A stretch of DNA of 64,000 nt, taken from Candidatus Yanofskybacteria bacterium RIFCSPLOWO2_01_FULL_42_49 (GTDB lineage: Bacteria; Patescibacteriota; Minisyncoccia; 2-02-FULL-40-12; GWA2-44-9). The notes under the pieces were generated by a model. It ran no database searches, had not been told where the DNA came from, and saw only the letters and a list, made by a program, of their open reading frames with translations. The stretch is taken from assembly GCA_001795615.1 (NCBI GenBank), contig MGKI01000014.1, positions 69,380 to 133,379 of the forward strand, in the 5' to 3' direction. Shown here piece after piece: positions 7,853 through 59,592 of this stretch (its first letter is position 1; the number at the start of each line of letters is the position of its first letter). The position numbers and the translations under genes were made by a program.

Positions 7853-8981
7853 ACAAAACAAAAGAAGCGTGGGATTTATCCCCTACGGCCGACAATCAAT
7901 TGATAATGATGATATTAAGGCCGTCGTTAATGTCTTGCGTTCGGACTGGTTGACCCAGGGTCCTGCGGTAAAACAATTTGAAGAGTCGCTGGCTAAATAT
8001 TGCAACGCCAAATATGCCGTAGCCGTTTCAAACGGCACGGCCGCTCTTCATTTAGCGTATTTAGCCGCCGATTTAAGCGCCGGTGATGAAGTTATCACAA
8101 CCCCAAATACATTTGCCGCAACTTCAAACATGCTCCTGGCGGTTGGAGCAAAACCTATTTTCTGTGATATACGGCTTGATAACTATAATCTTGACGAAAC
8201 AAAAATAGAAAAACTTGTCACCTCAAAAACAAAAGCCATAGTTCCGGTCCATTTTGGCGGCCATCCGTGCAATATGGACAAAATATTAAGTATGGCCAAA
8301 AAACACAGCCTGCTCGTAATTGAAGATGCTTGCCATGCTCTAGGCGCCTCATTTAAGAATGAGAAGGTTGGCGGCATCGGTGATATGTCGGTTTTCAGTT
8401 TTCATCCGGTCAAATCAATAACTACCGGTGAGGGTGGGGCAATTCTGACAAATAATCCTAAATTTTATAAAAAACTGGCCCATCTCCGAACACATGGCAT
8501 AACCAAAGATGAGGGTGGATTCAATGTTATGACCGCACTAGGTTATAACTACAGAATTACCGATATTCAGACGGCCTTGGGAATAAGTCAGTTGAAGAAA
8601 CTGGATAAATTTGTAAAAGCTAGGCAGAAGATTTTCGATATCTATAAAAAAGAGCTGGCCGGTGTAAAAGAGGTCTTCACTCCCTCTCTGGCCAAAAACT
8701 CCGTTTCTTCAAATCATCTTTTTGTAATAAGGACAAAAGACCCAACAAAAAGAAATCCTCTTGCTAATTTTCTTAAACAAAACGGCATAGGCGTAAATTT
8801 TCACTATCCAACCGTTTATTCCCACCCTTATTACAGAAAAAATGGCTATAAAGATGTAAAACTAGCCAACGCCGATCTATATCATAACTCCTGTATCACG
8901 CTTCCGCTTTATGTAACACTAGAAAAGAGCCAAATAAAATACATATGCAATAAAATAAAGGAATTCTTTAAAAAAGTTTAA
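7836..8981 (+). CDS. DegT/DnrJ/EryC1/StrS-family PLP-dependent sugar aminotransferase (PseC/LegC-like)
   Basis: Contains DWLTQGP and SNGTAALHLA, the Schiff-base lysine context FHPVKSITTGEGGAI, and YNYRITDIQTALG. The ORF overlaps the upstream gene. Confidence 0.85.
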   Translation: MTNNNKQNKRSVGFIPYGRQSIDNDDIKAVVNVLRSDWLTQGPAVKQFEESLAKYCNAKYAVAVSNGTAALHLAYLAADLSAGDEVITTPNTFAATSNMLLAVGAKPIFCDIRLDNYNLDETKIEKLVTSKTKAIVPVHFGGHPCNMDKILSMAKKHSLLVIEDACHALGASFKNEKVGGIGDMSVFSFHPVKSITTGEGGAILTNNPKFYKKLAHLRTHGITKDEGGFNVMTALGYNYRITDIQTALGISQLKKLDKFVKARQKIFDIYKKELAGVKEVFTPSLAKNSVSSNHLFVIRTKDPTKRNPLANFLKQNGIGVNFHYPTVYSHPYYRKNGYKDVKLANADLYHNSCITLPLYVTLEKSQIKYICNKIKEFFKKV

Positions 8982-9090
8982 AGTAGAGAATTAAAAGTTA
9001 AAAATCAAAGTTACAAGTTAAAATTTTTTATATATAACTTTGAATTTAAAACTTTAACTTTCAACTTTACACTTTTAACTTTTTACTTAT
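8982..9090. repeat. Palindromic AT-rich AAGTTAAAAG / AACTTTCAACTT repeat element filling the intergenic gap (copy A)
   Basis: The left arm (AAAAGTTAAAAATCAAAGTTACAAGTTAAAA) and the right arm (AACTTTGAATTTAAAACTTTAACTTTCAACTTTACACTTTTAACTTTTT) are near reverse complements. It shares the k-mers AAGTTAAAAG, ACTTTCAACT and CTTTTAACTT with copy B at 60874-61005. Confidence 0.7.
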
Positions 9091-10950
9091 ATGCAAACAT
9101 ACCTACTTTTTGAGATAGCCAATTCCTGCGCTGGGTCGAGCAAATTGATAGAAAAGTTGATAGATTCCCTACCGCAAGAGGATAATTTTGGCATTAACCC
9201 CCACACTCACTTTAGATATAGCTCAAAGAGCCAAAAACTAAAGCAAGTTAAAGTGAGTGTGGGGGTAAAATTTCAAGTTTATAAGTATAACGAAATTGCC
9301 TTATCCGACTATGAATGGTATCCGGTTTATAAGCAAACCTTCATAAATGCGCAGAATTGGAAAAAGATTTTTGCTCATGCAAAGAGCAAGGGCTTTGATA
9401 TCTGGATAGATGTTTTTGATCTATATAGCGTAGAAGTTATTAAAGATAATCTGCCGTTGGTAACCGGAATAAAACTCCAGTCTTCTGTTTTGAATAACCT
9501 CAAGGTATTGACTGCATTATCTGAAGTAATAAAAAACGGAAAGATTACGGTGATGTTAAATGTTGCCGGCAGAGACCTATCAAACATCAAAGAGTTGCTT
9601 AAAGATATAAGATCAAATTATTTTGACAATAAAATTATACTTCAAGCCGGTTTTCAGGGATATCCCACCGATAAAGAAGATCTAACCGTAAGTAAGGTCC
9701 GGATCTTAAAATCCGAATTTCCTAGTACAATAATATCTTATGCCGATCATGTTGACGGCAGTTCGCCTCTTGCGTTTGATATTCCGGTTTTTGCCGTATT
9801 GGCCGGCGCCGAGCACATAGAAAAGCATGTCTGCTTAGACAGGAAAAATACAAAATACGACTTCCAATCAGCAATTGAGCCCTATGAATGTGATCTATTA
9901 ATTTACAAGCTTAATGAAGCCGAAAAAATATTGGGAACAAAGTTTATACCAGACAAGGAAGCAAATTACCTCAAAACAACAATAGAGAAACCAATCGCTT
10001 CAGTTCATTTGAGAGCCGGCGATATTATAAATTTCAAAAACTTTGACTTTAGAAGAACCGGGCAGGAGGGGCTGACTGTAGCTGAAATAAAAGAATATAT
10101 GGAAAAAAGGTACGTACTGAAAAATGATATAAAGCCCGGGAAACCGATAACAAAAAATGATCTGAAAAAAGCCAGAGTAGGCGTTATTATCGCCTGCCGA
10201 ATGAAGTCAACCCGCTTAAAACATAAAGCCATATTACCCATTCAAGGACTGGCATCAATCGAAAGATGTATTTTGAACGCTAAAAAAATTAAATCGGCTG
10301 ATGAGATAATTTTGGCAACTTCAACCCTTGAAGAAGATCAAATTCTAAAAAAATACGCCTTAAAGCATAGGATCCGTTTTTTTGCCGGAGACCCCGAGGA
10401 TGTCATACTCCGCTATTTAGGCGTAGCTGAAAAATATAATCTTGATGTTACAATCCGAGTTACCGGTGATTGCCCGATAGTGTCGTATGAGATGGCCAAA
10501 TTTTTACTGAAAAGACATTTTGAAAAAGGTAATGATTATACTGGCCCCAAAGAATATTGTACCGGACAAAATAGCGAAATATACAGTGTAAATACATTAA
10601 AAAGAATTATAAAGTACTTGGGTGATGCCAGACATTCCGAATATATGACTTGGTATATGCTTACTAATAAAGACATCTTCCAAGTAGATATGGCCGAATT
10701 GCCCAAAGAATGGATCCGCGCTTACCGGCTAACCCTGGATGTCCAAGAAGACCTTGATATGTTTAATGCCTTATTTGAAAAATTGGGCAAAAAAGAAGTA
10801 AGCATTAAAAATGTATTCGGGGTAATTGACAAGAATCCCTGGATTCACGAACTTAACGATGCCATGGTTCTTAAATACAAATCGGATAAAAAATTAATAG
10901 ACATGCTGAATAAAGAAACGAGGATAAATCCGCCCAAAATTAAAAAATGA
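9091..10950 (+). CDS. Fusion protein: divergent NeuB-like (sialic/nonulosonic acid synthase-like TIM barrel + SAF domain) fused to an acylneuraminate cytidylyltransferase-like domain (SpsE-SpsF-like)
   Basis: N-terminal ~340 aa: the order of blocks matches NeuB (...GIKLQSSVLNNLKVL..., ...ISYADHVDGSSPLAFDIPVFAVLAGAEHIEKHVCLD...) and is followed by a SAF-like segment (VHLRAGDIINFKNFDF). C-terminal ~250 aa: ARVGVIIACRMKSTRLKHKAILPI...ILATS...IRVTGDCPIV is typical of CMP-sugar cytidylyltransferases (NeuA/PseF/SpsF). Confidence 0.6.
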   Translation: MQTYLLFEIANSCAGSSKLIEKLIDSLPQEDNFGINPHTHFRYSSKSQKLKQVKVSVGVKFQVYKYNEIALSDYEWYPVYKQTFINAQNWKKIFAHAKSKGFDIWIDVFDLYSVEVIKDNLPLVTGIKLQSSVLNNLKVLTALSEVIKNGKITVMLNVAGRDLSNIKELLKDIRSNYFDNKIILQAGFQGYPTDKEDLTVSKVRILKSEFPSTIISYADHVDGSSPLAFDIPVFAVLAGAEHIEKHVCLDRKNTKYDFQSAIEPYECDLLIYKLNEAEKILGTKFIPDKEANYLKTTIEKPIASVHLRAGDIINFKNFDFRRTGQEGLTVAEIKEYMEKRYVLKNDIKPGKPITKNDLKKARVGVIIACRMKSTRLKHKAILPIQGLASIERCILNAKKIKSADEIILATSTLEEDQILKKYALKHRIRFFAGDPEDVILRYLGVAEKYNLDVTIRVTGDCPIVSYEMAKFLLKRHFEKGNDYTGPKEYCTGQNSEIYSVNTLKRIIKYLGDARHSEYMTWYMLTNKDIFQVDMAELPKEWIRAYRLTLDVQEDLDMFNALFEKLGKKEVSIKNVFGVIDKNPWIHELNDAMVLKYKSDKKLIDMLNKETRINPPKIKK

Positions 10951-11516
10951 CAACAATATACATACTGGGCGGATTTTTAAAAAAAAATCGTGACGGAAGC
11001 TACGGCAGTGATCAATTAAGTTACATAAGGGTTCTGGCCGGATATTATCTTTACAAAAAATTATCTGGAAAAAACAAGATCGAACTGATTGTTTCTGGAA
11101 GCAGAGGAATTTATAGAGGAACTCCGGGCATTCCTCGAGTGGCAATAGTAATGAAACGGGAGCTGATAGAATTAGGCCTAAGCCCAAAAGAAATAAAAAT
11201 AGATAAAACGGACTTTACTTACAAGGAACTTATCTGGCTAAAAAAATATATAGCTAAAAAAACTGGGAAAGCATTTATTGTATCTAATGCCTACCACTTA
11301 CCCAGGATTAAAACGATGATCGATATTCTTCCAGAATTGAAGGAATTAAAAAATATAATTAAATTAGTCCCCGCGGATAAAATAGCAATTAAATTCGACG
11401 AAAAATTAAAACCCAGAATTAAAAAAGCCAATAAAAGTTCGGAAATGAAAAAAATAATTTCTTCTGAAAAAGAGGGTATACGCGCATTAAGATCAGGTAA
11501 CTATAAATTCAGGTGA
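10947..11516 (+). CDS. DUF218/YdcF(ElyC)-like domain protein
   Basis: ELIVSGSRG, TDFTYKEL and IVSNAYHLPR match the conserved DUF218 blocks. Length is 189 aa and the ORF overlaps both neighbours. Confidence 0.55.
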   Translation: MTTIYILGGFLKKNRDGSYGSDQLSYIRVLAGYYLYKKLSGKNKIELIVSGSRGIYRGTPGIPRVAIVMKRELIELGLSPKEIKIDKTDFTYKELIWLKKYIAKKTGKAFIVSNAYHLPRIKTMIDILPELKELKNIIKLVPADKIAIKFDEKLKPRIKKANKSSEMKKIISSEKEGIRALRSGNYKFR

Positions 11517-12583
11517 TGGAAAAACTCATAGTAAAAATAGGGAATGAGAAAAGGGAGATCGGCCCTAACCAGCCGGCTTTTATAATTGCCGAAATGTCGG
11601 CTAATCATGGACATAACATCAGGAAAGCGTACAAAATAATCGACGAAGTAGCCAAAGCTGGTGCAGATGCAATAAAACTTCAAACCTATACTCCGGACAC
11701 GATAACCATTGATTCAAATAAAAAATACTTCCAAGTAGAAATAAATGATGCTTGGAAAGGTCAGACTCTTTACAGCTTATATAGCAAAGCATACACACCT
11801 TGGGAGTGGATGCCAAAATTAAAAAAATACGCTGAAGACAAGGGACTGGTATTTTTTTCCTCTGTTTTTGACAATACTTCAGTTGATTTTCTAGAGACAA
11901 TTAACGTACCGATCTATAAGGTGGCATCCTTTGAAGTGGTCGATATTCCCCTTCTTAAAAGAATAGGCAGAACAAAAAAACCAGTTATTATATCCCGAGG
12001 TATGTCTACCCTCTCCGAACTGAAGTTAGCTCTTAAAACGTTAAAAAATGCCGGTACTTCTTCAATCGCAATCCTTCATTGTGTAAGTTCTTATCCGGCT
12101 AAATTCGACGAAATGAATATTTATACAATTACCGATCTAATAAAAAAATTCAATCATGTCGTCGGTCTTTCTGATCATTCTCCCGGAGCAACGGCCTCAA
12201 TAGCTGCCGTGAGCTTGGGAGCAAAAGTTATAGAAAAACACATAATTTTGTCCCGTTCCGAAGGCGGACCGGACGCTGCTTTTTCTCTTGAGCCAAATGA
12301 ATTCAAAAAACTTGTTGACTCTGTCCGAAATACTGAGGCTGCGTTGGGTAAGCCTTTTTACGGCTCAGGAATAAAAGAGTCGGAAAATATTGTTTTTAGA
12401 AAGTCACTTTTTGTCGTTGAAAATATTAAAAAGGGTCAAAAATTTACAGCTCAAAATATCCGTTCAATCCGCCCCGGACATGGTCTTGAACCGAAATATT
12501 ATGAGCGGGTTATTGGAAAACTAGCCAAAGTTGACCTAGAAAAAGGCACACCGCTTAAATTAATCCACATAGAAAATGTCTAA
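11513..12583 (+). CDS. N-acetylneuraminate/pseudaminate/legionaminate synthase family (NeuB/PseI/LegI) with C-terminal SAF domain
   Basis: The N-terminus GPNQPAFIIAEMSANHGHNIRKAYKIIDEVAKAGADAIKLQTY is canonical NeuB. It also contains GLSDHSPG, LGAKVIEKH and GPDAAFSLEP, and ends with a SAF-like tail. Confidence 0.85.
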   Translation: MMEKLIVKIGNEKREIGPNQPAFIIAEMSANHGHNIRKAYKIIDEVAKAGADAIKLQTYTPDTITIDSNKKYFQVEINDAWKGQTLYSLYSKAYTPWEWMPKLKKYAEDKGLVFFSSVFDNTSVDFLETINVPIYKVASFEVVDIPLLKRIGRTKKPVIISRGMSTLSELKLALKTLKNAGTSSIAILHCVSSYPAKFDEMNIYTITDLIKKFNHVVGLSDHSPGATASIAAVSLGAKVIEKHIILSRSEGGPDAAFSLEPNEFKKLVDSVRNTEAALGKPFYGSGIKESENIVFRKSLFVVENIKKGQKFTAQNIRSIRPGHGLEPKYYERVIGKLAKVDLEKGTPLKLIHIENV

Positions 12584-13190
12584 AATTGGGGTAATCAACT
12601 ATGGCGTTGGCAATCTGCAATCCGTGAAAAACTCACTGGATTTTTTAGGCATTCCAAACGAAATTGTCGACAAGTCGCAGGAGATAAGTAGTTTTGACAA
12701 AATAATTCTGCCGGGAGTAGGCGCTTTTGGAGCCGCAATAAAAAAATTAAATGACCTTGGTTTTACTGAAGAAATAAGAAAATTCTCCAGCCAAAATAAG
12801 CCAATCCTCGGTATCTGTCTAGGTATGCAGCTTCTATTTGATGAGAGTTACGAACACGGCCACCACCAAGGTTTAGGATTAATAAAGGGAAGGGTTCTGC
12901 CTTTCAATGAAAAAATAAAAAACCTGCCTCTGCCTCAAATCGGTTGGAATAACATAACTAAAGTAGGCGTATCCCCTATTTTAAAAAATGTCGAGGATAA
13001 TTCTTGTTTTTATTTTGTCCATAGTTTTTATTGCGAACCAGAGAAAAAAACTGCCACAATAGCTAGTTCTGATTATGGCATAAAATTTGCGGCAATTATT
13101 AACGAAAATAATATCTTCGGCTGCCAGTTCCACCCGGAAAAAAGCCAGTCGGCCGGACTTCATATATTAAAGAATTTCTCTAGCCTATGA
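12576..13190 (+). CDS. HisH-like glutamine amidotransferase subunit (glycan-associated, WbuY/PseA-partner type)
   Basis: Class I GATase motifs: ILPGVGAFG, GICLGMQLL and the FHPEKS triad. It sits next to HisF-like and PP-loop amidotransferase genes rather than his genes. Confidence 0.8.
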   Translation: MSKIGVINYGVGNLQSVKNSLDFLGIPNEIVDKSQEISSFDKIILPGVGAFGAAIKKLNDLGFTEEIRKFSSQNKPILGICLGMQLLFDESYEHGHHQGLGLIKGRVLPFNEKIKNLPLPQIGWNNITKVGVSPILKNVEDNSCFYFVHSFYCEPEKKTATIASSDYGIKFAAIINENNIFGCQFHPEKSQSAGLHILKNFSSL

Positions 13191-13972
13191 TTAAACGACG
13201 CTTAATACCAGTACTTTATATTAAGAATGGCCTTATCGTAAGAAGCGAGGGATTTTCTTATCACCACAATATAGGCAACGTGGTAAAAGAAGCTGCTCGC
13301 TATAATAGCTGGGATGTTGACGAGTTAATTTATATAGACATAAGTCGAGAAAAACACTACGATCTCCGCCGTGACGATTATAATGTAAACGCCTACAACT
13401 CAATCGGATCCATCATTAAAGAAATATCCAAGGTTTGCTTTATGCCCTTAACCTTTGGAGGGGGCATACGAACTATTGATGATGTCAGTTTCAGGATACA
13501 AAATGGGGCTGATAAAATAACCTTAAACACCGGCGCACTTGAAAATCCAAAATTAATAACTCAAGCAGCTGAGAGATATGGTTCACAAGCCGTGGTGATA
13601 TCTATTGATTATAAAATTATTGAAAACCAACCAATCGTATTCACTGATTTTGGCCAAAAAAATACGAGCAAATCTGTTTACAACTGGGTCAAAGAATGCG
13701 AAAATCTAGGTGCTGGAGAAATATTTATTAACTCGATTGACCGAGATGGAAAAGCCAACGGCTACGATATTGAAACAATCAATAAAACCGTCGCATCTAC
13801 TAAATTACCCACTATCGCTTGCGGCGGAGCTGGAAATCTTGAAGATTTTGTTGAACTGGCGAAACAAACAAATGTTTCAGCCGTAGCCGCTGGAAACATA
13901 TTTCACTTTACCGAGTTAAGTTATCCAAGATCAAAAATATTGCTTAAAAAAAATAATTTAAATTTCCGTTAA
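13187..13972 (+). CDS. HisF-like cyclase subunit (glycan-associated, WbuZ-type)
   Basis: (beta/alpha)8 HisF-like blocks: RLIPVLYIKNG, LTFGGGIRT and IACGGAGNLEDF. Its position fits the acetamidino-sugar trio. Confidence 0.8.
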   Translation: MIKRRLIPVLYIKNGLIVRSEGFSYHHNIGNVVKEAARYNSWDVDELIYIDISREKHYDLRRDDYNVNAYNSIGSIIKEISKVCFMPLTFGGGIRTIDDVSFRIQNGADKITLNTGALENPKLITQAAERYGSQAVVISIDYKIIENQPIVFTDFGQKNTSKSVYNWVKECENLGAGEIFINSIDRDGKANGYDIETINKTVASTKLPTIACGGAGNLEDFVELAKQTNVSAVAAGNIFHFTELSYPRSKILLKKNNLNFR

Positions 13973-13973
13973 C

Positions 13974-15173
13974 ATGACTAAGATAACATACTGCACAAAG
14001 TGCGTTTATCCCTCAAGTTCTGCTGTTCCCCTTGCCTTTGATGAAAAAGGGTTGTGTTCCGGCTGTAGAACCAGCGGAGAAAAAGCACAGATAGATTGGG
14101 ACGATCGCAAGAAAAAATTTGAGGATATTATTGAAGAATACCGCAATAAAGACGGCACTGGTTATGATCTAATAATTCCAGTTTCCGGAGGCAAGGACAG
14201 TTACTTTCAAGTCCATCTTATGAAAAAAATTTATGGACTTAATCCGCTTCTGGTAACCTACAACGGCAACAACTATACTCCGACCGGAATGGAAAATCTC
14301 ATTAACATGAGAAATGTTTTTGGAGTTGATCATATTTTCTTCACGGCCAACATTGATGTGCTGAAAACATTAAATCGCCTCGGTGTCCAAATTTTGGGTG
14401 ATATGCAGTGGCACTACGCTTCGGGCATCTACACATACCCAATAAGGGTAGCCGTAGAGACCAAGACGCCCTTGATGCTCTGGGGCGAACACGGGCATAT
14501 GGATCTTGGCGGAATGCACTCATATAATGACTTGGTGGAATTTACATACAGATATCGGCACGAACATGTAATTCGAGGATACGAGTGGACTGATTTTTTA
14601 AAAAGAGCGCCAGAATTCGGCGAAAAACTAACTAAACAACAACTAATCCCTTGGATGTATCCTTCAGATGAGGAGATAGCTAGTGTTGGTGTTCGGGGTA
14701 TTTATACCGCTAATTATTTTAAATGGGATGCCAATATCCACGGGCCAATGGTAATGGAAAAATACGGTTTTAAGGTACCCGATGAACCTTTTGAAAGGAC
14801 TTATAGAAAGATGTCAAACTTAGACGATATGCATGAGAATGGCGTACATGATTACCTAAAGTTTATAAAATTTGGCTATGGTCGAGCAACTGACCATGTT
14901 TGCAAAGATATCCGATCGGGCATTATGACCCGTGAACGAGGAATTGAATTAGTTAAAAACATGGACCACCTCAAACCAAAAGATACCCAGCGATGGTTAA
15001 AATATGTCGGTTGGACAGAAGAAAAATTTGATAAAATTGCCGATACTTTCCGCGACCAGCGAGTTTGGTGGATCAAAGACGGCCAGTGGTGGAAAGACAA
15101 TCTTTGGAGGGAACCATCTGCTTACGGAAAGGTCCACTTGGACCCGAAACAACAGAAAAAATACTTATTGTAA
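13974..15173 (+). CDS. N-acetyl sugar amidotransferase (PP-loop ATP pyrophosphatase; PseA/WbpG/WbuX-like)
   Basis: An N-terminal Cys-rich segment CTKCVYPSS...CSGCR is followed by the PP-loop SGGKDS. Length is 399 aa and it follows the HisH/HisF homologs. Confidence 0.8.
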   Translation: MTKITYCTKCVYPSSSAVPLAFDEKGLCSGCRTSGEKAQIDWDDRKKKFEDIIEEYRNKDGTGYDLIIPVSGGKDSYFQVHLMKKIYGLNPLLVTYNGNNYTPTGMENLINMRNVFGVDHIFFTANIDVLKTLNRLGVQILGDMQWHYASGIYTYPIRVAVETKTPLMLWGEHGHMDLGGMHSYNDLVEFTYRYRHEHVIRGYEWTDFLKRAPEFGEKLTKQQLIPWMYPSDEEIASVGVRGIYTANYFKWDANIHGPMVMEKYGFKVPDEPFERTYRKMSNLDDMHENGVHDYLKFIKFGYGRATDHVCKDIRSGIMTRERGIELVKNMDHLKPKDTQRWLKYVGWTEEKFDKIADTFRDQRVWWIKDGQWWKDNLWREPSAYGKVHLDPKQQKKYLL

Positions 15174-15231
15174 ATTTTACTTTTAACTCATTCATGCTAT
15201 CATCCTGTTAGTTTTTCAATACCGAGTAAAC

Positions 15232-15672
15232 ATGGGACTAATCATCAGACCAGCACAACTTGATGACGCACAAAGAATTTGGGAGATTAGGAATGAACCC
15301 CAAGCCAGGGCTGTTGCGGCCAACTCAGACGTAATTCCCCTCGCCCAGCATATTAGCTGGTTCGAGAACAAATATTTTAAACCCGAGGGTGATTCTTGTT
15401 TTGTGGCTGAAATTGACGGGAAAGTTATCGGTTATTGCCGTTTTGATTCGGAAGGAGATCATTACTTAAACTCAATCGCCGTTACTTCATCAATGCATGG
15501 CAAGGGAATCGGCACTATCCTACTCGGCCAATCAATAAAACAACTGAAAACAGACAAGCCGATCCACGCTGAGGTAAGGAGATATAATCTAGCATCTGTG
15601 AAAATATTTGAAAGAAACGGTTTTAAGAAAGTGTCCGAAGACAAAAAAAATATATATTATCAATTAACATAA
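15232..15672 (+). CDS. GNAT-family N-acetyltransferase (PseH-like)
   Basis: 146 aa with the GNAT acetyl-CoA pocket block HGKGIGTILL...RNGFKK. It is located inside the nonulosonate module. Confidence 0.7.
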   Translation: MGLIIRPAQLDDAQRIWEIRNEPQARAVAANSDVIPLAQHISWFENKYFKPEGDSCFVAEIDGKVIGYCRFDSEGDHYLNSIAVTSSMHGKGIGTILLGQSIKQLKTDKPIHAEVRRYNLASVKIFERNGFKKVSEDKKNIYYQLT

Positions 15673-15674
15673 AA

Positions 15675-15691
15675 GACCCCGAGAAGGGGTC
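15675..15691. terminator. Bidirectional hairpin between convergent genes
   Basis: GACCCC-GAGAA-GGGGTC. On the - strand it is followed by TTTTATG. It overlaps the stop codons of both flanking genes. Confidence 0.5.
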
Positions 15692-16761
15692 TATCGCTTA
15701 TAGTAATTTAAGACAGCTTGAGCAACACGCTCACCATTAAGCCCGTCTGCCTGAAAATATTTCTGCTGGGCTTGCAGCATAGCCGCTGTATCGCCGACAA
15801 GTATTCTCTTTAAACAGTTCCTGACTTCTTCTATGCTTTCTGCTTTTAAAGATGCGCCGAGATTAGTAATTGGCCATTCGGTCATAATGTTACTTCTTGC
15901 TTCTGAAAGCAATTGACCGATTTCAGGAGTCCAAATAGTAATTAGTGGTTTCCGTAAATAACACGCCTCAACCGTCATGGTTGAATATATTCCGACAACA
16001 ATGTCCGAGCCTGCCATAATTTCGCCGCTGGTAAGACCGCTGGGATTAACAACCTTGCCCATCCGTAAACAACTTAATTCCTTCCGATATTCTAAATAAA
16101 TCTTTTTAAACTCTTCTGTTGCCCCAGAAGAAACAACAGATGGATGATCTGCTAAGATAAGATAGATCGGATTATCAAAATTATTCACGGCCTCGACAAA
16201 CATTTTGACAGCTTTGGGCATTCCCCAAGCTTGACCGGCAAAAAATACCACCGGCCAGTTTTCTCTAAGCCTCAAAACATCATGTAATGCATATCGTGCA
16301 ATTTCAGTTTCAACTTCGGCATACTTATCAAAAAAAGGCATACCGGTTACATGAATATTAGATTCTGGATAGTTGGGCCACGACCTAAGAATCAGGCATT
16401 TCGCAAATTCATCCACGACGCAAACACCGTCCGGCAAGATATCCCACTTAAACGAAGCATGCCCTCCCCATACCTCCTCGACCAGAACGGTCGGCAGATT
16501 TCTTTGTTTAGCTTCTTTATTTAAACCTATTGGTATAGACCCGCCCTTGATAGCAACCGTTAAAATGACCAATGACGGCCCGAGGGAATTGAGTAAATCA
16601 CTTATTTTTTGTTCAGGAAAGAATAAAAGCTTGTCTTTCAAATATTCGGGCGCCAATCCTTCAGCATAAACAGATACTGGAATTCCTTTATCTTTAAGTA
16701 TGTTTATCACCGATAGACAAGCATTTACAGAACCGGTATCCCGTAACCCGAAAAGAACCAC
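15691..16761 (-). CDS. GT-B fold protein, candidate UDP-sugar hydrolase/2-epimerase of the nonulosonate pathway (PseG/NeuC-like)
   Basis: 356 aa with two Rossmann-like halves and a C-terminal G-rich loop ...AGSDIVVGIYSTMTVEA.... The assignment rests mainly on context and fold-level resemblance. Confidence 0.4.
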   Translation of the reverse strand: MVLFGLRDTGSVNACLSVINILKDKGIPVSVYAEGLAPEYLKDKLLFFPEQKISDLLNSLGPSLVILTVAIKGGSIPIGLNKEAKQRNLPTVLVEEVWGGHASFKWDILPDGVCVVDEFAKCLILRSWPNYPESNIHVTGMPFFDKYAEVETEIARYALHDVLRLRENWPVVFFAGQAWGMPKAVKMFVEAVNNFDNPIYLILADHPSVVSSGATEEFKKIYLEYRKELSCLRMGKVVNPSGLTSGEIMAGSDIVVGIYSTMTVEACYLRKPLITIWTPEIGQLLSEARSNIMTEWPITNLGASLKAESIEEVRNCLKRILVGDTAAMLQAQQKYFQADGLNGERVAQAVLNYYKR

Positions 16762-16829
16762 AAAATACTACCTTTTCAAGGAACTTTGAGCAATAATACC
16801 TCAATCGCCTAAAATAGCAATTTTAGAGA

Positions 16830-17306
16830 TTATCTAGCCTTTACTGACCAAACATCGCCCCATTTGTAAGGGTCGAAGCGCTTGTCATCTTTAAGAGACT
16901 CCTGGGTAGTGGAGGTTGAAGCGCAGATGAGAATTGTATCATCGGAAAGAGAAACCCAGCCATTGGCATAGAATGGGGGTATTATTATGAGATTATTTTT
17001 TCTTACCGAGCTGACGAATTGGAATTTATCGTCTGGTTTATCAGGATCTAATGCGACAAATTTAGCCGAACCGGACACGATAACAAAAAATTTCCATTCT
17101 TTTTCGTGATAATGAAACCCGCGGACAACCTCCTTGCTATCGTTACAAACATAATACATTCTCTTAATAACGCCTGCCTTGGGAGCTATTTCTTCCAAAC
17201 CATTTATAAACGGGGCAAAAGTCCCCCGATCATCGGCAAAAACAGGATATTCAACGGCTCGAGGTTGATTGTGATTCACTTTTTTCATTCTTTTTGTTTG
17301 CTTCAT
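16830..17306 (-). CDS. Cupin-fold sugar-nucleotide isomerase/epimerase (FdtA/WxcM C-terminal domain / RmlC-like)
   Basis: Cupin motif RGFHYHEKEWKFFVIVSGSAKF, of the form G-x-H-x-H...E...G. Length is 158 aa. Confidence 0.5.
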   Translation of the reverse strand: MKQTKRMKKVNHNQPRAVEYPVFADDRGTFAPFINGLEEIAPKAGVIKRMYYVCNDSKEVVRGFHYHEKEWKFFVIVSGSAKFVALDPDKPDDKFQFVSSVRKNNLIIIPPFYANGWVSLSDDTILICASTSTTQESLKDDKRFDPYKWGDVWSVKAR

Positions 17307-17315
17307 GTGGGATTT

Positions 17316-17436
17316 ATCCCGTTAGAGGTCCGACCCGCCTGAAAGGCGTGGTTCTCGGAGTGTGGGCATCCCCACTCCTGGGGAACTCTGTCGGCAGACG
17401 ACCCCGACTTGAGTCGGGGCGTCTTACCTCTAACGG
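17316..17436. ncRNA. GC-rich highly structured intercistronic element (candidate cis-regulatory RNA / sRNA / attenuator)
   Basis: A closing helix of 12 perfect bp (CCCGTTAGAGGT ... ACCTCTAACGGG) encloses CCGAC/GTCGG, a CGCC-TGAAA-GGCG hairpin, a GGAGTG/CACTCC hairpin and an AGACG-[CCCCGAC-TTGA-GTCGGGG]-CGTCT stem. The region is roughly 60% GC against AT-rich flanks. On the - strand it lies between the SDR stop (inside the helix) and the cupin start codon 11 nt away. On the + strand it is followed by ACCATATTTTTTT. Confidence 0.35.
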
Positions 17437-18443
17437 GACCATATTTTTTTATTATCCTTCATCAAACCCGCCAAATGTTTTTCGTTAAAGTGAACTGTCT
17501 CTTCTGAGGATGTTCTATTAAAACTGGCTAAAGATGCCATTTCTTTTATGCCATGGTCTAAATTATACCTCAACCCCTTAAGGAGTCCTGCTCTTTTTGC
17601 CTTATCTGCATTAACATGATAATTGCGCTCGTCTTGAAATGGCTGTTCAGTTGACTCAACTTTACAGTTTGTTAATTTGCTAACTCTGTCCGCCAAGTCC
17701 TTTATTTGAGAATTTTCGGTGACAAGATTGTAAATTCCTTTTGCGCTGTTATCAAGACCGTTAACAAAAGCCATGGCAATATCTTTCACATGAATAAATG
17801 GCCTCCACTGGGTACCGCCAAAGTAAGTTAGCTTACCCTCACCAATGGCCTTAAAACTCAAGAAGTTAACGGCTAGATCCAGACGGACCCTGGAGTGACT
17901 ATCGGAAATACCATAGGCAGTACCGATCCGATACATTAAAACATTCGGATGTTTAATGAGGAACGATTCTACTTCCAGCTTGCTTCTGGCGTAAAGCGAG
18001 AGTGGATTTGTCGGCGATGATTCAGTAAGCATTGAATCGCTCTTGCCATAAACAGAACAAGTTGAAGCAAAAAGTATCCGTCCTTTGTAATTTTTTACCA
18101 GCCACTTAACGGGTTCGACATTGACTGCCCTGGTCATCCATTCATCTATCTGGCAGCCCGGATCGCCGACAATTGCCGCTAGCCAAATAATGTGAGTATA
18201 TTTAGGCAATACGGACTTGAGTTTCTTATAATCCCTAACGTCACCATATACAAAATCAACCGGTTTTAAATACTGATGCTCGTAAACAAGCTTGTCGTAA
18301 ACGCTAAAAGGAATTCTTTTGGCAACCAAAATATCGGTTATAGCACCGCCAATATAACCGGCTCCACCGACAACAAGAACTTTGATTTTGCTGTTGTTTC
18401 CCATATAATTTTTATATAATAACAAAGATAAGCTGTAATGCAA
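17430..18443 (-). CDS. NAD-dependent sugar-nucleotide dehydratase/epimerase (extended SDR; PseB/LegB candidate)
   Basis: Rossmann motif VLVVGGAGYIGG and catalytic YARSK (YxxxK). Probable start is MGNNSKIKVL at ~18404. Confidence 0.8.
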   Translation of the reverse strand: MHYSLSLLLYKNYMGNNSKIKVLVVGGAGYIGGAITDILVAKRIPFSVYDKLVYEHQYLKPVDFVYGDVRDYKKLKSVLPKYTHIIWLAAIVGDPGCQIDEWMTRAVNVEPVKWLVKNYKGRILFASTCSVYGKSDSMLTESSPTNPLSLYARSKLEVESFLIKHPNVLMYRIGTAYGISDSHSRVRLDLAVNFLSFKAIGEGKLTYFGGTQWRPFIHVKDIAMAFVNGLDNSAKGIYNLVTENSQIKDLADRVSKLTNCKVESTEQPFQDERNYHVNADKAKRAGLLKGLRYNLDHGIKEMASLASFNRTSSEETVHFNEKHLAGLMKDNKKIWSR

Positions 18444-18453: not shown

Positions 18454-18493
18454 GTTGATATCTGTTGACACCTTTTGACATCTTTTGATACTC
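18454..18493 (+). promoter_or_regulatory. Phased TGAYAY direct repeats (x4, exact 10 bp spacing), promoter/operator-like
   Basis: TGATAT at 18456, TGACAC at 18466, TGACAT at 18476 and TGATAC at 18486, with CTTTT spacers. An AGAGG SD lies ~10 nt before ATG 18521. Confidence 0.5.
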
Positions 18494-18520: not shown

Positions 18521-19414
18521 ATGCTAATAAGTACCGTCCAAAAACTCAAAGCCATTCCAAGTTATCTTTACAGGAATTATGCCGCTCCTAAATTTTACAG
18601 TATCCGAGACAGAATGATCCTGTCAAGAAATTTGGAACTTAAAAATAAATATGTCGGCCGGCGTTGTTTTATTCTTGGCGCCGGACCCTCTATAGCTGAC
18701 ACTGATCTTTCGCGGCTGAGACAAGAGCATGTTTTTGTAGTTAACGAGTTTGAGAAGAATAAACAGCATCGCTCTTTAACGCCGACATTTCACATCATAT
18801 CGGAATCAAATTATTTTAACGAAAACGGACCGGAGTATTGGCGCAACCGCTTTAAGGAAAAGAATAAATACATATCTGCCGACACAACTATTATAACCAA
18901 CTTGGCAGCAATACCATTCATTCAGAAACATGACTTGTTTAAAGAGCATAGGATATACTATACAGGCACACAGGGAATTTTCAGCAATAATCTGCCTTTT
19001 AGTATAGATCTTAATCACTATGTTCCCAATCCCAAAAATTCAATTTTAATGTGCATGATTGCGGCCACTTGGATGGGTTTTAATAAAATTTATCTTCTTG
19101 GCTGCGAACACAGTTTCCTGGCTCAACCTTTGGGTAAAAATAAATCTCTCGGGTTCGGTCATAGCTATGAAGATGAAACATCTAGCCTTGATAATGCCGA
19201 CAATGCAACCCTGAAGAAATATATTGATGCCAAAGAACTGAATTTTACCTACGAGATGAGCATCGCCAACATATTGCAATTATTTAAAAATTACCGCTTA
19301 TTTTACTCTAAAGCGCGCAGAATCCATCCAGATTTACAAATATTCAACGCCACGCCTAATAGTTTTCTGGATGTTTTTCCTATGATAAATTTTGAAGATA
19401 TAATGGGACTATGA
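18521..19414 (+). CDS. DUF115 / motility-accessory-factor (Maf)-like protein, candidate nonulosonic acid transferase
   Basis: FILGAGPSIADTDL...VFVVNEF and a C-terminal ...IYLLGCEH... resemble the MptE-like/Maf family. It is the first gene downstream of the shared promoter motif. Confidence 0.4.
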   Translation: MLISTVQKLKAIPSYLYRNYAAPKFYSIRDRMILSRNLELKNKYVGRRCFILGAGPSIADTDLSRLRQEHVFVVNEFEKNKQHRSLTPTFHIISESNYFNENGPEYWRNRFKEKNKYISADTTIITNLAAIPFIQKHDLFKEHRIYYTGTQGIFSNNLPFSIDLNHYVPNPKNSILMCMIAATWMGFNKIYLLGCEHSFLAQPLGKNKSLGFGHSYEDETSSLDNADNATLKKYIDAKELNFTYEMSIANILQLFKNYRLFYSKARRIHPDLQIFNATPNSFLDVFPMINFEDIMGL

Positions 19415-20136
19415 AACATATCCGATATAACAATATAGAGGTTGTATATAAAGAAAAGCTACATGGCGGAGGAATTAGATTCGGACAGCAATTTATTCCC
19501 ATAGTAAAGGAAAGGTTCGGCCATGTTGGCCACATATTTGAATTTTGTGCTGGACCTGGATTCATCGGATTTTCACTGCTTGCAAATAATCTCTGCGATA
19601 AATTAACTGTGGCCGATATAAACCCGGAAGCTGTTAAGGTGTTAAGTGAGACGGTCAAAAAAAATGGCCTAGAGTCAAAGGTTGCCGTCTATCTTTCCGA
19701 CTGTCTGGATAGCATACCTGAGACAGAAAAGTGGGATCTGGTCGTCAGTAACCCACCTCATGTTTTTTGCGCAAATGAAGATGAGCACAAAAAAAATATA
19801 ATTTTATTTGACCCTAATTTTAACATACATAAACGATTCTATAGGGATATCAAAAAATTTTTAAAGCCAACCGGTTCAGTGCTGCTTCAGGAACACACAG
19901 AATCAACAAACATAGACGATTTCAAAAGTATGATAGAAGAGAACGGGCTTAAAATAGTTGATGTTTTTACATATACTTCCCCAGTTAAAGTTATCGGCCC
20001 TAAAAACACTCTCGGTTTTAACTTTCCAACTCTGCGCAAAATTTTTAATCCGTTTAAAGTTTATAGGGCCGCAAAAAGACGGCTCTGGCCGAATAAGCCC
20101 AGGAACTATTATTTTATCCACGCTAAAATAGCATGA
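19411..20136 (+). CDS. Class I SAM-dependent methyltransferase
   Basis: FEFCAGPGFIG (motif I-like), DINPEA and VVSNPPH (NPPY-like motif IV). Confidence 0.7.
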   Translation: MKHIRYNNIEVVYKEKLHGGGIRFGQQFIPIVKERFGHVGHIFEFCAGPGFIGFSLLANNLCDKLTVADINPEAVKVLSETVKKNGLESKVAVYLSDCLDSIPETEKWDLVVSNPPHVFCANEDEHKKNIILFDPNFNIHKRFYRDIKKFLKPTGSVLLQEHTESTNIDDFKSMIEENGLKIVDVFTYTSPVKVIGPKNTLGFNFPTLRKIFNPFKVYRAAKRRLWPNKPRNYYFIHAKIA

Positions 20137-21983
20137 AGATTTTAGGTTTAAAAATTATTGACCACGACACGGGTGCCGCTCTCTTGGTGGATAACCAGGT
20201 AATAGCCATATCTCAAGAACGTCTAGATAGGAAGAAGTATTCCATGGCATTCCCGAAAGAATCTATTGATTACTGTTTGTCTGCGGCTGGCATAAAAAGT
20301 ATCGATGAAATAGATTCAGTCGCAGTTGAGCAAATAGATGCAACGCCTGCATCATTAATAAACCTGCTTAAACAACATGACTTGTGGGATAAGATCGCTC
20401 ACAAAACTATATTTGTTAACCATCATGATGCTCACGCAGCCAGTGCCTTTTTTTGTTCACCATTTGATGACGCGGCGGTTATGGTAGTTGATAGCGCCGG
20501 CCAAAAGGAAAAATTAGCAACGGGATTAATAGGCGTAGAGACGGAAACATTTTACAAAGGTAATAAAAATGGACTGTATCGGATCGTCCGCAATCATGCG
20601 CCAGTTAACCAATTTACCGGCCGGCTCTTGGATTTTTCCGGGATCGGCAATTTGTATTCACAGGTCACTTATTTTCTCGGGTTCGGCAAACATGAAGAGG
20701 GTAAAACAATGGGCCTAGCACCTTACGGAAAAGGTAGGTTAATTTCAGAGATTCCGGAAGAACAGTTCTTAAAAAAGGTAGACCAATTCCGTTATATCTT
20801 CCCTACTCGCCTAGAACCACACTCAGACATGGGCCTAAAATATCTCTTCAAAAAAACATCCTATTCCAGAAAATCTGCCCTAGTCAGAAAAATAAAATTA
20901 ATTATGCATTCTTTTTCTAAAAAGGGCTTGGCTTATGAAAAACCAGCACATTTCCCAAAGACGCCAGAGATTTTCTTTAAACACCCACGCGCAAATAAAA
21001 ATATCAAGCTTCCAGACAACTTTTACCCCCACACCCAGCCAGCGAATATTTATGATCGCCAAGAAGGCAATCGCCGGCTAGGTGTGGGGGTTTATACGGA
21101 ATTGGCTTACTGGGCACAGTTCTATTTAGAAAAAGTTATGACTGACTACGCTATATGTTTACACAATGTCACAAATTCAAAGAATCTTTGTATCGCCGGA
21201 GGCGTAGGCTTAAACAGTGTGGCCAACAAAAAGATCCTGGACAATACTCCTTTTGAAAATATTTTCATCCAACCCGCTTCCGGCGATTCCGGCTTGGCAT
21301 TGGGAGCAGCTTTGTGGGCCAATCACCAGTTCAATAAAAATCCGGTTGAGTGGAAAATGGATAACGCCTATCTTGGCAGAGAATATGGAGAGAAAGAAAT
21401 ATTGAATACCATCCAAGGATATCAATATGAAAAATTATCAAGTCCAGCCCAAACAGCGGCAAAATTACTGGCAGACGGAAAAATAATTGGCTGGTTTCAG
21501 GGTAAAAGTGAGCATGGCCCCAGAGCCTTGGGCAATAGAAGCATCCTATGCTCTCCCATTCCGCCCGGAATGAAAGACAAGCTGAACGCACAAGTAAAGC
21601 ATCGCGAATCATTTCGCCCATTTGCTCCAGCATGCCTCGAAGAATCTGCCGATGAATATTTTGAGCTTGATTGTCCAAGCCCGTTCATGCTTCTTGTTGC
21701 TAAGGTAAAAAAGGATAATATTCCCGCAGTAACCCACATAGACGGGACCGCCCGCGTCCAGACCGTCAATAGTAGTCAAAATCCGAAATTTTATTCGCTT
21801 ATAAAAGAATTCCAAAAACTAACCGGCGTACCAGTTGTATTAAATACATCGTTCAATGACTCTGGCGAACCCATTGTTGAAACGCCTGAAGACGCGATAA
21901 AAACTTTCAAATCCACAAACATTGACGCTCTCATCATCGGCGGCTATCTTCTCTTGCCGAACAATGACAAAATTAATACATAA
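20133..21983 (+). CDS. Carbamoyltransferase (NodU/CmcH family)
   Basis: N-terminal MKILGLKIIDHDTGAALL and FVNHHDAHAASAFF, and a C-terminal HIDGTARVQTV motif. Length is 616 aa. Confidence 0.85.
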   Translation: MKILGLKIIDHDTGAALLVDNQVIAISQERLDRKKYSMAFPKESIDYCLSAAGIKSIDEIDSVAVEQIDATPASLINLLKQHDLWDKIAHKTIFVNHHDAHAASAFFCSPFDDAAVMVVDSAGQKEKLATGLIGVETETFYKGNKNGLYRIVRNHAPVNQFTGRLLDFSGIGNLYSQVTYFLGFGKHEEGKTMGLAPYGKGRLISEIPEEQFLKKVDQFRYIFPTRLEPHSDMGLKYLFKKTSYSRKSALVRKIKLIMHSFSKKGLAYEKPAHFPKTPEIFFKHPRANKNIKLPDNFYPHTQPANIYDRQEGNRRLGVGVYTELAYWAQFYLEKVMTDYAICLHNVTNSKNLCIAGGVGLNSVANKKILDNTPFENIFIQPASGDSGLALGAALWANHQFNKNPVEWKMDNAYLGREYGEKEILNTIQGYQYEKLSSPAQTAAKLLADGKIIGWFQGKSEHGPRALGNRSILCSPIPPGMKDKLNAQVKHRESFRPFAPACLEESADEYFELDCPSPFMLLVAKVKKDNIPAVTHIDGTARVQTVNSSQNPKFYSLIKEFQKLTGVPVVLNTSFNDSGEPIVETPEDAIKTFKSTNIDALIIGGYLLLPNNDKINT

Positions 21984-22818
21984 AACGACTAAGAACCTCT
22001 TGCGCAAACTGCCCATTTTCCTTCCAGCTAAAAAACTGCATTATTTAGCGCGCAGATTCATATTTAAAATTTATAACGCTCTATTCCCAACCGCAACGAT
22101 ACTTCTTTACCATCGGATATCAGATTCAAAAAATGACCCTCATCGGCTTTGCGTATCGCCGGAAAATTTCCGCGAACAGATAAAATTTTTAAAAGAAAAT
22201 TTCCGCGTTATACCCCTGGTCCAGCTTGTCAGGGAAGTTCGTTCTAAAAAATTAAAAAGCAAGACCGTGGTCATTACCTTTGATGACGGCTATTCTGATA
22301 ATCTCCACAATGCCTTACCGGTTCTCCAAGAACTCGACATCCCAGCCACCATATTTTTTACGGCCGGTTATGTTGGCTCGAATAAGCTCTTTTATTGGGA
22401 CTTATATGCACAAACAGGCGAAAATACGCCCCCAGAAGACCAAGGTAGGCCATTGACCCTAGATGAGGCTAAAACCCTCTCTACGGCCCGTATAATCGAA
22501 ATTGGAGGCCATACTATAAACCACCCCAAACTAGCTAAAATACCCCCAAATGAGCAGTTTGTGGAAATATTCAAAGGGAAAATAATCGTTGAAGAAATGC
22601 TTGATATTCCCCTTTTAAGTTTTGCCTATCCGTTTGGAGGCAGGGACAGCTTTGATAAAAACACAATTGAACTGGTCAAAAAAGCCGGATTCCAATACGC
22701 TTGCTCCAACACACACAAAAGAGTGACAAATAATTCTAATATATATGCCTTACCCCGTTATGTGGTAAGAAATTGGAATTTAGAAGAATTTAAGAAAGAA
22801 TTCACTAAATTTATTTAA
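21922..22818 (+). CDS. Polysaccharide deacetylase (NodB-homology domain, CE4)
   Basis: TFDDGY, HTINHP and a later ...YPFGG... block. Likely start is MTKLIHK at ~21964, which overlaps the upstream stop. Confidence 0.8.
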   Translation: MTLSSSAAIFSCRTMTKLIHKTTKNLLRKLPIFLPAKKLHYLARRFIFKIYNALFPTATILLYHRISDSKNDPHRLCVSPENFREQIKFLKENFRVIPLVQLVREVRSKKLKSKTVVITFDDGYSDNLHNALPVLQELDIPATIFFTAGYVGSNKLFYWDLYAQTGENTPPEDQGRPLTLDEAKTLSTARIIEIGGHTINHPKLAKIPPNEQFVEIFKGKIIVEEMLDIPLLSFAYPFGGRDSFDKNTIELVKKAGFQYACSNTHKRVTNNSNIYALPRYVVRNWNLEEFKKEFTKFI

Positions 22819-22830
22819 TATTTACTCGGG

Positions 22831-24027
22831 ATGAATATTATCCAAATCAACACAATAGATAAAAAGGGTGGGGCAGCAATGGTTGCTTATTCTTTACAAC
22901 AAGAACTGGGAAAAAGGGGCCACACAATATCGATGTTTGTCGGGAGAAAGTATTCTGAGGAGAGTAATATTAAATTGCTTAACGACATGCGTTCTATCTC
23001 AGGTAAAGTCCGACGGAAACTTGCTTACTGGCTAGCTAATGACATCGATGTTTTTTCTTCTGACCACATTTTAAAAACTCCGGAATTTAAAAATGCCGAT
23101 ATCGTTCATTGCCACAATCTGCATAGCAACTACTTCAATCTGGGAACCTTGGAAAAAATGTCTCGCCTTAAGCCGGTTGTTTGGACATTCCATGATATGT
23201 GGCCGATTACCGCCCATTGTGGCCACGCTTTTAACGGTAAAATCAACAAGAATGGTTTTTTTACTTGTCCGGCCTTAAATATACCACCGGCTATCGCCTG
23301 GCACAACGAAAAATACCTAGAGAATAAAAAAACAAAAATATACAAAAACTCAAACTTTCACATTGTCACTCCCTCAAAATGGTTGGCGGAAAAAGTGGGT
23401 CAAAGTATTTTAAAAAATAAACCAATATCAATTATTTATAACGGCATTAACACAAACGCATTCAGCCCCTTACCCAAAGAGCAATGCCGCAAAGAACTAA
23501 ACCTGCCCTTGAACAAGAAGATTATTTTATCTGTTATTAAAAAACAAGATGACCAATGGAAAGGATGGGCGTTCGTAGTTGAAACTGCTGAACAATTCAA
23601 AAACAACAAAGATATTGTTTTTATAAACATCGGCAGAATCACCAGCAATAAGAACAATTTATTAGGACTTCCACCCATTAGCGAAGAAGGAGTGTTGAAA
23701 AAATACTATTCCGCCACCGATATTCTTCTCTATCCTTCAATAGCCGACAACTGTCCCTTGGTAGTCTTAGAAGCGATGGCTTGCGGTTTACCGATTGTCT
23801 CATTTAACACCGGCGGCATACCGGAGTTGATAGAACATAAAGCAAACGGATATATAGCCAAACATAAAGACACTGACGATCTCAAAAACGGTATAGAGTA
23901 TTTACTAAACTTGTCTAATCAAGAGTCAGAACAAATGAGACAACATTCAATAAAAAAAATAAAAAATGGATTTACGACGGAGAAAACGACTAACGAATAT
24001 ATTGAGCTTTACAATCACATCTTATAG
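22831..24027 (+). CDS. GT4-family (GT-B) glycosyltransferase
   Basis: C-terminal EAMACGLPIVSFNTGGIPELIE, with an E-x7-E-like donor-binding region. Confidence 0.8.
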   Translation: MNIIQINTIDKKGGAAMVAYSLQQELGKRGHTISMFVGRKYSEESNIKLLNDMRSISGKVRRKLAYWLANDIDVFSSDHILKTPEFKNADIVHCHNLHSNYFNLGTLEKMSRLKPVVWTFHDMWPITAHCGHAFNGKINKNGFFTCPALNIPPAIAWHNEKYLENKKTKIYKNSNFHIVTPSKWLAEKVGQSILKNKPISIIYNGINTNAFSPLPKEQCRKELNLPLNKKIILSVIKKQDDQWKGWAFVVETAEQFKNNKDIVFINIGRITSNKNNLLGLPPISEEGVLKKYYSATDILLYPSIADNCPLVVLEAMACGLPIVSFNTGGIPELIEHKANGYIAKHKDTDDLKNGIEYLLNLSNQESEQMRQHSIKKIKNGFTTEKTTNEYIELYNHIL

Positions 24028-57724: not shown

Positions 57725-57774
57725 TCAAAATATCATACCACTATTTTCCCTTAATTCCTAGAAAATAAATAATA

Positions 57775-59589: not shown

Positions 59590-59592
59590 CTT

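Follow-up and report, generated by a model that had tools for sequence, protein, structure and literature searches.

To what kind of acceptor would a short protein of the DUF115 type transfer its sugar, when it is encoded beside genes for a sialic-acid-like nonulosonate: to a protein, as Maf does, or to another sugar? The question is posed by a five-gene operon (18521-24027, + strand) of Candidatus Yanofskybacteria bacterium RIFCSPLOWO2_01_FULL_42_49, an uncultured member of the candidate phyla radiation (CPR). We analysed the operon within a stretch of 64,000 nucleotides (assembly GCA_001795615.1, contig MGKI01000014.1, positions 69,380 to 133,379), called the window here, and all coordinates count from its first letter. 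On balance, and with moderate confidence, we favour the reading that the operon serves to transfer and tailor the sugar in a pathway for a surface glycan of pseudaminic-acid type, and that its first open reading frame (ORF1) encodes a sugar-directed transferase of a nonulosonate activated with cytidine monophosphate (CMP). The operon consists of the following genes, with lengths in amino acids (aa):

18521..19414, + strand: ORF1, 297 aa, a short protein of DUF115 type that resembles GT42 enzymes and the central domain of Maf, and a candidate glycosyltransferase using CMP-pseudaminic acid (nonulosonate).
19411..20136, + strand: ORF2, 241 aa, an S-adenosylmethionine (SAM)-dependent methyltransferase of the MTS/HemK type (PF05175 MTS, 49.7 bits; cut-off 23).
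20133..21983, + strand: ORF3, 616 aa, a NodU/CmcH-family carbamoyltransferase (Carbam_trans_N, 149.3 bits; Carbam_trans_C, 239.9 bits).
21964..22818, + strand: ORF4, a carbohydrate esterase family 4 (CE4) deacetylase of the NodB/PgaB type (Polysacc_deac_1, 80 bits).
22831..24027, + strand: ORF5, 398 aa, a glycosyltransferase of family 4 (GT4; Glycos_transf_1 and Glyco_transf_4).

Because the junctions are tight (two 4-nt ATGA overlaps, a 20-nt overlap between the carbamoyltransferase and CE4 genes given a CE4 start at ATG 21964, and a 12-nt gap between the CE4 and GT4 genes), the sequence suggests that ORF1 to ORF5 form a single operon. The ORF4 reading frame opens at TTG 21922, and ATG 21964 is the likelier start, giving a protein of 284 aa. 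The five plus-strand genes and their families are those that a preliminary description of this DNA had listed, and the Pfam calls of four of the five, ORF2 to ORF5, clear their thresholds comfortably. ORF2 has weak PrmC/HemK matches that fall under the NCBIfam equivalog cut-offs, and is therefore no release-factor methyltransferase; its motif IV, read from the translation, is NPPH (N114-H117), a class characteristic of amino-nitrogen methyltransferases. ORF3 passes both Carbam_trans gathering thresholds and fails the NCBIfam NodU cut-off (181.6 bits against an equivalog cut-off of 1000), and is therefore a member of the family, not NodU itself. The metal-binding motifs of ORF4, TFDDG and HTINH, are intact; no signal peptide was found in ORF4, and no transmembrane (TM) segment in any of the five operon proteins.

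ORF1 is the divergent member of the set. It scores 26.4 bits (E 6.8e-6) against PF01973 (MptE-like/DUF115/MAF_flag10), short of the gathering score of 34.6, and no NCBIfam model matches it. The earlier DUF115 assignment is thus sub-threshold for the protein itself and holds at family level: 119 of 120 relatives match PF01973 at E < 1e-3 (best 2.4e-25), which makes ORF1 a divergent representative of this superfamily. Four of the same 120 relatives match the Pfam CST-I model, which does not match ORF1. An exhaustive profile search placed 7187 clusters at 50% identity in this family of ~290-aa proteins (E < 1e-3). ORF1 is identical to GenBank proteins OGN00505.1/OGN22162.1, and all of its close homologues belong to metagenome bins assigned to Yanofskybacteria, Paceibacterota or Patescibacteria.

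The predicted fold of ORF1 resembles both Maf and sialyltransferases. An AlphaFold (AF2) model made with 48 homologues reached a mean local confidence (pLDDT) of 86 and a predicted template-modelling score (pTM) of 0.87, and its top Foldseek match in the PDB was Magnetospirillum Maf (5mu5; E 1.2e-5, probability 1.0), followed in order by archaeal MptE (8sd5), SteA and eukaryotic sialyltransferases of glycosyltransferase family 29 (GT29). Searching the PDB sequences with ORF1 by phmmer gave no match, and the relationships to Cst-II, Maf and MptE emerged only with a wide profile of the family, made from 120 distant representatives. This wide profile matched Cst-II, the Campylobacter jejuni enzyme of family GT42, at E 4e-7, Cst-I at E 8e-6, and a lipooligosaccharide alpha-2,3-sialyltransferase at E 0.017; MptE 8sd5 followed at E 0.019, over ~23 residues around the GxGPS loop only, and Maf 5mu5 at E 0.021, over 5mu5 residues ~275-435 only. 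In hhalign the family aligned with Cst-II at 97% probability over the CMP-binding N-terminus, with only 32-39 N-terminal columns aligned. ORF1 residues G53, G55, P56, S57 and N75 (the loop G53-A54-G55-P56-S57 and beyond) align with Cst-II G8, G10, P11, S12 and N31, and E196, in an invariant 'GCEH', aligns with D154 in the 'GID' strand of Cst-II. Both E69 and E196 are invariant within the close family of ORF1; the catalytic acidic residues of M. magneticum Maf are E324/D415 (bioRxiv 10.1101/2020.06.03.131540). As judged from profiles and the model, ORF1 belongs to the DUF115/sialyltransferase-like superfamily and is not a Maf orthologue, and its sequence corresponds to the central catalytic domain of Maf only.

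The likeness to GT42 is one of size as well as of motif. Cst-I and Cst-II of C. jejuni (PDB 1ro7, 2p2v) are, like ORF1, short, single-domain and soluble or peripheral, and share with it the N-terminal CMP-binding GxGPS...N motif and a central 'G(F/Y)xEIYL-G-x-D/E' strand. GT42 enzymes take a CMP-nonulosonate as donor, and their acceptor is a sugar of an oligosaccharide linked to lipid. They differ from ORF1 in that sequence identity is low, and that the ORF1 donor is presumably pseudaminic acid (Pse), in contrast to N-acetylneuraminic acid in GT42. The Maf proteins (Magnetospirillum 5mu5, CbMaf, GkMaf) have in common with ORF1 the PF01973 domain, the modified GT-A (DUF115) fold, and adjoining genes for Pse or legionaminic acid (Leg); in contrast to ORF1 they are ~600 aa long, about twice its length, act on flagellin Ser/Thr, and are encoded near flagellar genes. 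The N- and C-terminal domains of Maf are reported to serve flagellin recognition.

Genomic context ties the family to nonulosonates. We surveyed 80 loci from a species-representative genome collection, 48 of them with full flanks, counting genes within 10 kb. A NeuB/PseI homologue lay within this distance of the DUF115 gene in 44 of the 80 loci, and in 34 of the 48 with full flanks, at a median of 1.9 kb and on the same strand in 43 of the 44; these loci belong to Bacillota, Cyanobacteria, Pseudomonas, Verrucomicrobiota, Chloroflexota, methanogens and CPR. A flagellin homologue was as close in only one of the 80. Natural fusions add to this picture: a metagenomic protein of 832 aa (P0227) joins DUF115, methyltransferase and CE4 domains, the last 49.5% identical to ORF4 over 101 aa, and this Rosetta-stone fusion ties the tailoring enzymes to the DUF115 transferase. 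A second metagenomic protein (P0138, 562 aa) joins a GT29-like segment to DUF115, and several relatives are fusions of DUF115 with tetratricopeptide repeats (TPR), one adding a NUDIX domain. NeuB linkage, the fusions and the rarity of flagellin together tie the family to nonulosonate metabolism, separate from flagellin glycosylation. RefSeq names relatives in Pseudomonas, Metabacillus, Neobacillus and cyanobacteria '6-hydroxymethylpterin diphosphokinase MptE-like protein'; because of the genomic context of the ORF1 family, this name is probably misleading.

Among the CPR relatives the DUF115 gene always stands last after a nonulosonate operon, which is of Pse type in loci L001-3 and L007 and Leg-like (Epimerase_2/Hexapep set) in L004. 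On its 3' side there follow a ~250-aa ORF and/or a CE4 gene, and then a conserved GT4 gene; the ~250-aa ORF is a methyltransferase in L001-L005, L007 and L039. Of the genes that accompany DUF115 in these relatives, the GT4 gene is the most constant: orthologues of ORF5 with 50-61% identity lie within ~3.5 kb downstream, mostly on the same strand, in L001-L007 and L039, and L070 has a GT4 homologue with 30% identity to ORF5. One Paceibacterota genome (L039) has the full set of five. L001-3 are without the deacetylase, and neither the carbamoyltransferase nor the NPPH methyltransferase is present in L004, L006, L007 and L070; among the relatives, the deacetylase and the carbamoyltransferase vary as accessory genes. 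A conserved ORF of ~310 aa, 52-60% identical among loci, sits just upstream of the DUF115 gene in L004 (9054-9998), L006 (9061-9999) and L039 (9072-9998); it occurs in Leg-like CPR clusters and is absent from the window.

The DNA preceding the operon in the window includes the genes for the likely donor:

7836..15672, + strand: nonulosonate biosynthesis operon of PseC, a NeuB-like/cytidylyltransferase fusion, DUF218, PseI, HisH-like/WbuZ/WbuX and GNAT (by Pfam and NCBIfam).
15691..18443, - strand: divergent three-gene unit of a short-chain dehydrogenase/reductase (SDR) epimerase/dehydratase (17430-18443), a cupin like RmlC/FdtA (16830-17306) and a protein of GT-B fold (15691-16761), a remote relative of BFO_1060/TagB.
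18455..18492, + strand: tandem repeat element, four TTGAYAY copies of 10 bp in the intergenic region between divergent genes.

Three of these proteins exceed NCBIfam equivalog cut-offs: PseC at 459.9 bits (cut-off 423.5), PseI at 454.7 (340.25) and WbuX at 325 (203). By these matches the nonulosonate context given in the preliminary description is real, and it is specifically Pse-like. The HisH-like/WbuZ/WbuX amidotransferase set implies, as far as family membership goes, an acetamidino substituent, and the GNAT acetyltransferase is a candidate PseH. The fusion protein (9091-10950, + strand; 619 aa) joins a divergent NeuB-like TIM barrel, without a SAF domain, to a CTP_transf_3 cytidylyltransferase of PseF type; L001 and L007 have counterparts with 73-88% identity.

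The biosynthesis genes and the operon share an element upstream. Tandem TTGAYAY repeats in 10-bp phase, three to four copies each, occur at 5178-5204, 6713-6739 and 18455-18491, all intergenic; a pattern search found 7 occurrences where 0.08 would be expected, all of them at these three sites. They precede three plus-strand units, namely a HemN-like radical SAM gene, the TIGR04440/PseC biosynthesis unit (from 6752) and the DUF115 operon (18521), and the shared TGAYAY promoter noted earlier is in this respect a real feature. In a promoter scan one repeat pair matched a sigma-70-like TTGACA-16 nt-GATACT (18465-18492). A four-repeat element is kept upstream of the L001 orthologue (L001 9934-9975), whose protein is 68% identical to ORF1; the exact long TGAYAY pattern had no match in the 85 retrieved loci, and it was direct reading of L001 that showed the slightly altered repeat. 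The repeat is absent from the intergenic region 7290-7420 of L039, upstream of its upstream gene block. The repeats may serve as promoter and operator for a shared regulator, and we count the shared element as putative support for co-regulation of the biosynthesis unit and the DUF115 operon.

We propose that ORF1 would act as a soluble cytoplasmic glycosyltransferase with a modified GT-A, sialyltransferase-like DUF115 fold. Its donor would be a CMP-activated nonulosonate, probably acetamidino-pseudaminic acid made by the neighbouring PseC/PseI/PseF/WbuXYZ genes, and its acceptor a sugar on a growing, probably lipid-linked, oligosaccharide, as for Cst-I and Cst-II on lipooligosaccharide; unlike Maf, it would not act directly on protein. 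The GT4 enzyme ORF5 would add the adjacent sugar, either the acceptor or the next residue, and the CE4 enzyme, NPPH methyltransferase and NodU-type carbamoyltransferase would decorate the product by de-N-acetylation, N-methylation and O-carbamoylation. Export and attachment of the finished glycan would presumably fall to the Wzy_C-TPR or PMT_2-TPR proteins encoded at 55-62 kb, with the Thr/Pro-rich SH3 protein encoded at 62133-63374 as a possible target.

Several observations weigh against this proposal. The Pfam score of ORF1 is sub-threshold, and the profile of its close family found only noise among solved structures (Integrin alpha-M, E 0.17). Cst-II His188 and Tyr156/Tyr162 have no aligned equivalents in ORF1: hmmalign sets A249, A201 and H214 at His188, Tyr156 and Tyr162, in the gapped and unreliable half of the alignment. 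Chiu and co-workers reportedly found in 2004 that His188 is catalytic and that Tyr156 and Tyr162 bind phosphate. Our literature search found no biochemically characterised enzyme of the short DUF115 family. The TPR fusions among the relatives fit protein acceptors. Pfam and NCBIfam scans of the window genes identified neither canonical PseB nor PseG, and neither a priming phosphoglycosyltransferase nor a Wzx flippase was identified in the window; the SDR, cupin and GT-B trio (15691-18443, - strand) may substitute for PseB/PseG. Finally, the GT-B is a second candidate transferase, encoded only 1.8 kb from ORF1.

This GT-B, which the preliminary description overlooked, gives rise to the alternative that survives best, although we consider it unlikely: the protein of 15691-16761 (- strand) would be the true pseudaminic acid transferase, as in Tannerella forsythia, and ORF1 would add a second nonulosonate or Kdo-like sugar, or use another substrate activated with CMP or a nucleoside diphosphate (NDP). 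The GT-B has no Pfam match; all 26 of its 26 relatives weakly match the NCBIfam model BFO_1060_trans (NF046086; best 2.2e-9) and 7 match TarB, it has an invariant His-Pro pair (H206-P207), and homologues occur in L001-3, L006 and L039. T. forsythia knock-outs of the BFO_1060 family lose terminal Pse/Leg (PMC5420450). The T. forsythia enzymes (Tanf_01245 / TFUB4_00887) cap an O-glycan bound to protein with modified Pse, a role that matches the one proposed here for the locus, and their gene lies just downstream of CMP-Pse genes and adjoins a methyltransferase (PMC5420450); they differ in having a GT-B fold unrelated to ORF1, their relative in the window being the 15691-16761 protein. We had considered the T. 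forsythia Pse transferase as a DUF115 protein and rejected this, as it is a TagB-like GT-B instead (PMC5420450). The window protein, however, reaches only 28.6 bits against the BFO_1060_trans cut-off of 200, a fold search with its model returned generic GT-B matches only, with UDP-GlcNAc 2-epimerases first, and it could equally be a PseG-type UDP-sugar hydrolase. Moreover, the TagB-like SpsB of Bacillus subtilis is dispensable for Leg transfer (PMC7439481), and linkage of DUF115 and NeuB holds without this GT-B (75 of the other 80 loci). The GT-B could be a PseG analogue or a second nonulosonate transferase, and the two candidates, ORF1 and the GT-B, are compatible and not mutually exclusive.

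We regard it as rather improbable that ORF1 is a Maf-type enzyme, setting a nonulosonate directly onto Ser/Thr of a surface protein such as a pilin, an S-layer protein or the SH3 protein of 62133-63374. The 5mu5 Maf is the top structural match of ORF1, the protein-binding TPR repeats fused in some relatives keep this alternative alive for parts of the family, and the protein encoded at 62133-63374 is secreted and has a G8-T11-(TP)n linker. Yet ORF1, at 297 aa, is far shorter than the 5mu5 Maf chain (632-666 aa) and has neither of the flanking domains, the family profile favours GT42 over Maf by ~5 orders of magnitude, and flagellin adjoins in only one of 80 family loci; the window is also rich in GT4/GT2 genes and Wzy_C/PMT_2 proteins, as is typical where a glycan is built stepwise and then transferred en bloc. 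Of the earlier view of ORF1 as Maf/DUF115-like, the DUF115/Maf/sialyltransferase-like fold stands, whereas the role of a Maf-type protein glycosyltransferase does not, on grounds of size, missing flanking domains, the closer profile match to GT42 and the want of flagellin linkage. As the preliminary description had also remarked, no flagellin gene was found among the scanned window ORFs. To our knowledge the CPR lineage is generally non-flagellated.

That ORF1 is a 6-hydroxymethyl-7,8-dihydropterin pyrophosphokinase of the archaeal MptE type, an alternative that the preliminary description had also named, is highly improbable, and we rejected it on gene context and alignment extent: its sole Pfam match is named MptE-like, as are relatives in RefSeq, and MptE 8sd5 is its second structural match, but no folate or pterin genes lie near ORF1, whose neighbours are nonulosonate and glycan genes, the similarity to MptE covers only the ~23 residues around the GxGPS loop, NeuB linkage of the family is strong, and its fusion partners are CE4, methyltransferase and a GT29-like domain.

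If ORF1 is taken as a sugar-directed nonulosonate transferase, the substrate of the three tailoring enzymes still admits more than one reading. Their trio of chemistries is that of the Nod factors, in which the CE4 de-N-acetylase NodB, the N-methyltransferase NodS, acting on the freed amine, and the O-carbamoyltransferase NodU modify a terminal amino sugar. The operon differs in that ORF2 is of MTS/HemK type and not of NodS type, in being without NodA or NodC, and in its proposed substrate, a nonulosonate-containing glycan in place of a chitooligosaccharide. CE4 enzymes normally act on N-acetylhexosamine (HexNAc) residues, and it is equally plausible that a HexNAc undergoes NodB/NodS/NodU-like chemistry or that the nonulosonate is modified; in loci without CE4, the methyltransferase could target the acetamidino nitrogen instead. 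The carbamoylated, methylated and de-N-acetylated nonulosonate predicted in the preliminary description goes beyond what can be derived from sequence: given the usual CE4 substrate and the variability of the accessories, it is one possibility of several.

The remainder of the window is one large glycan island, with about ten GT4/GT2 genes, a C-methyltransferase, RmlD-like reductases and LtaS-like membrane proteins. Directly 3' of the operon, on the opposite strand, are encoded two membrane proteins (24022-25521 and 25525-27096, both - strand) that are paralogues and have 4-5 TM helices at the N-terminus; the first has a weak domain of the sulfatase / alkaline-phosphatase superfamily (LtaS/EptA-like), and the second a counterpart in L039 with 68% identity. 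The island holds radical SAM genes, two of them B12-binding (28789-30369 and 30485-32614, both - strand) and one HemN-like (5279-6664, + strand), whose products may modify sugars by unusual C-methylation or by other radical reactions. Three paralogues (2936-4003 and 3996-5156, - strand; 6752-7852, + strand) have a common 'KVAIxIxTMNRPDF' N-terminus and no Pfam match, and that of 6752-7852 matches NCBIfam TIGR04440 (TIGR00180-family glycosyltransferase). At the far end (55463-63374, - strand) are encoded polytopic Wzy_C-TPR (11 TM-like segments), TPR (9) and PMT_2-TPR (6) proteins, adjoined by the secreted Thr/Pro-rich protein of 62133-63374 (- strand), with its G8-T11-(TP)n linker and C-terminal SH3 domain. 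It is plausible that the Wzy_C/PMT_2 proteins are oligosaccharyltransferase-like machinery and the SH3 protein their O-glycosylation target.

Neither the superfamily nor its chemistry is new; the novelty lies in recognising a minimal DUF115 family, distinct from Maf, that is widespread, tightly linked to NeuB and coupled, sometimes by fusion, to CE4 and methyltransferase, here in a CPR bacterium. Papers of 2017-2020 describe non-flagellin Pse/Leg transferases as scarce or unidentified (PMC5420450, PMC6137143, PMC7439481), and a literature search for Patescibacteria together with pseudaminic or nonulosonic acids returned nothing relevant. More tentatively than for the operon itself, we suggest that the ~290-aa DUF115 family could be a general transferase of pseudaminic and legionaminic acids onto non-flagellar glycans in bacteria and archaea, forming with CE4 and methyltransferase a module that is sometimes fused. 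As a compact, soluble family with tight and phylogenetically broad NeuB linkage, it offers a concrete candidate for in vitro transfer of CMP-Pse or CMP-Leg, and its assignment would correct a misleading database name. For the ultrasmall CPR/Patescibacteria episymbionts, at least this 64-kb window would be given over to a decorated, sialic-acid-like surface glycan, which may matter for host attachment or phage evasion; if the family is indeed a general non-flagellar transferase, these would be CPR bacteria with a heavily tailored sialic-acid-like cell surface.

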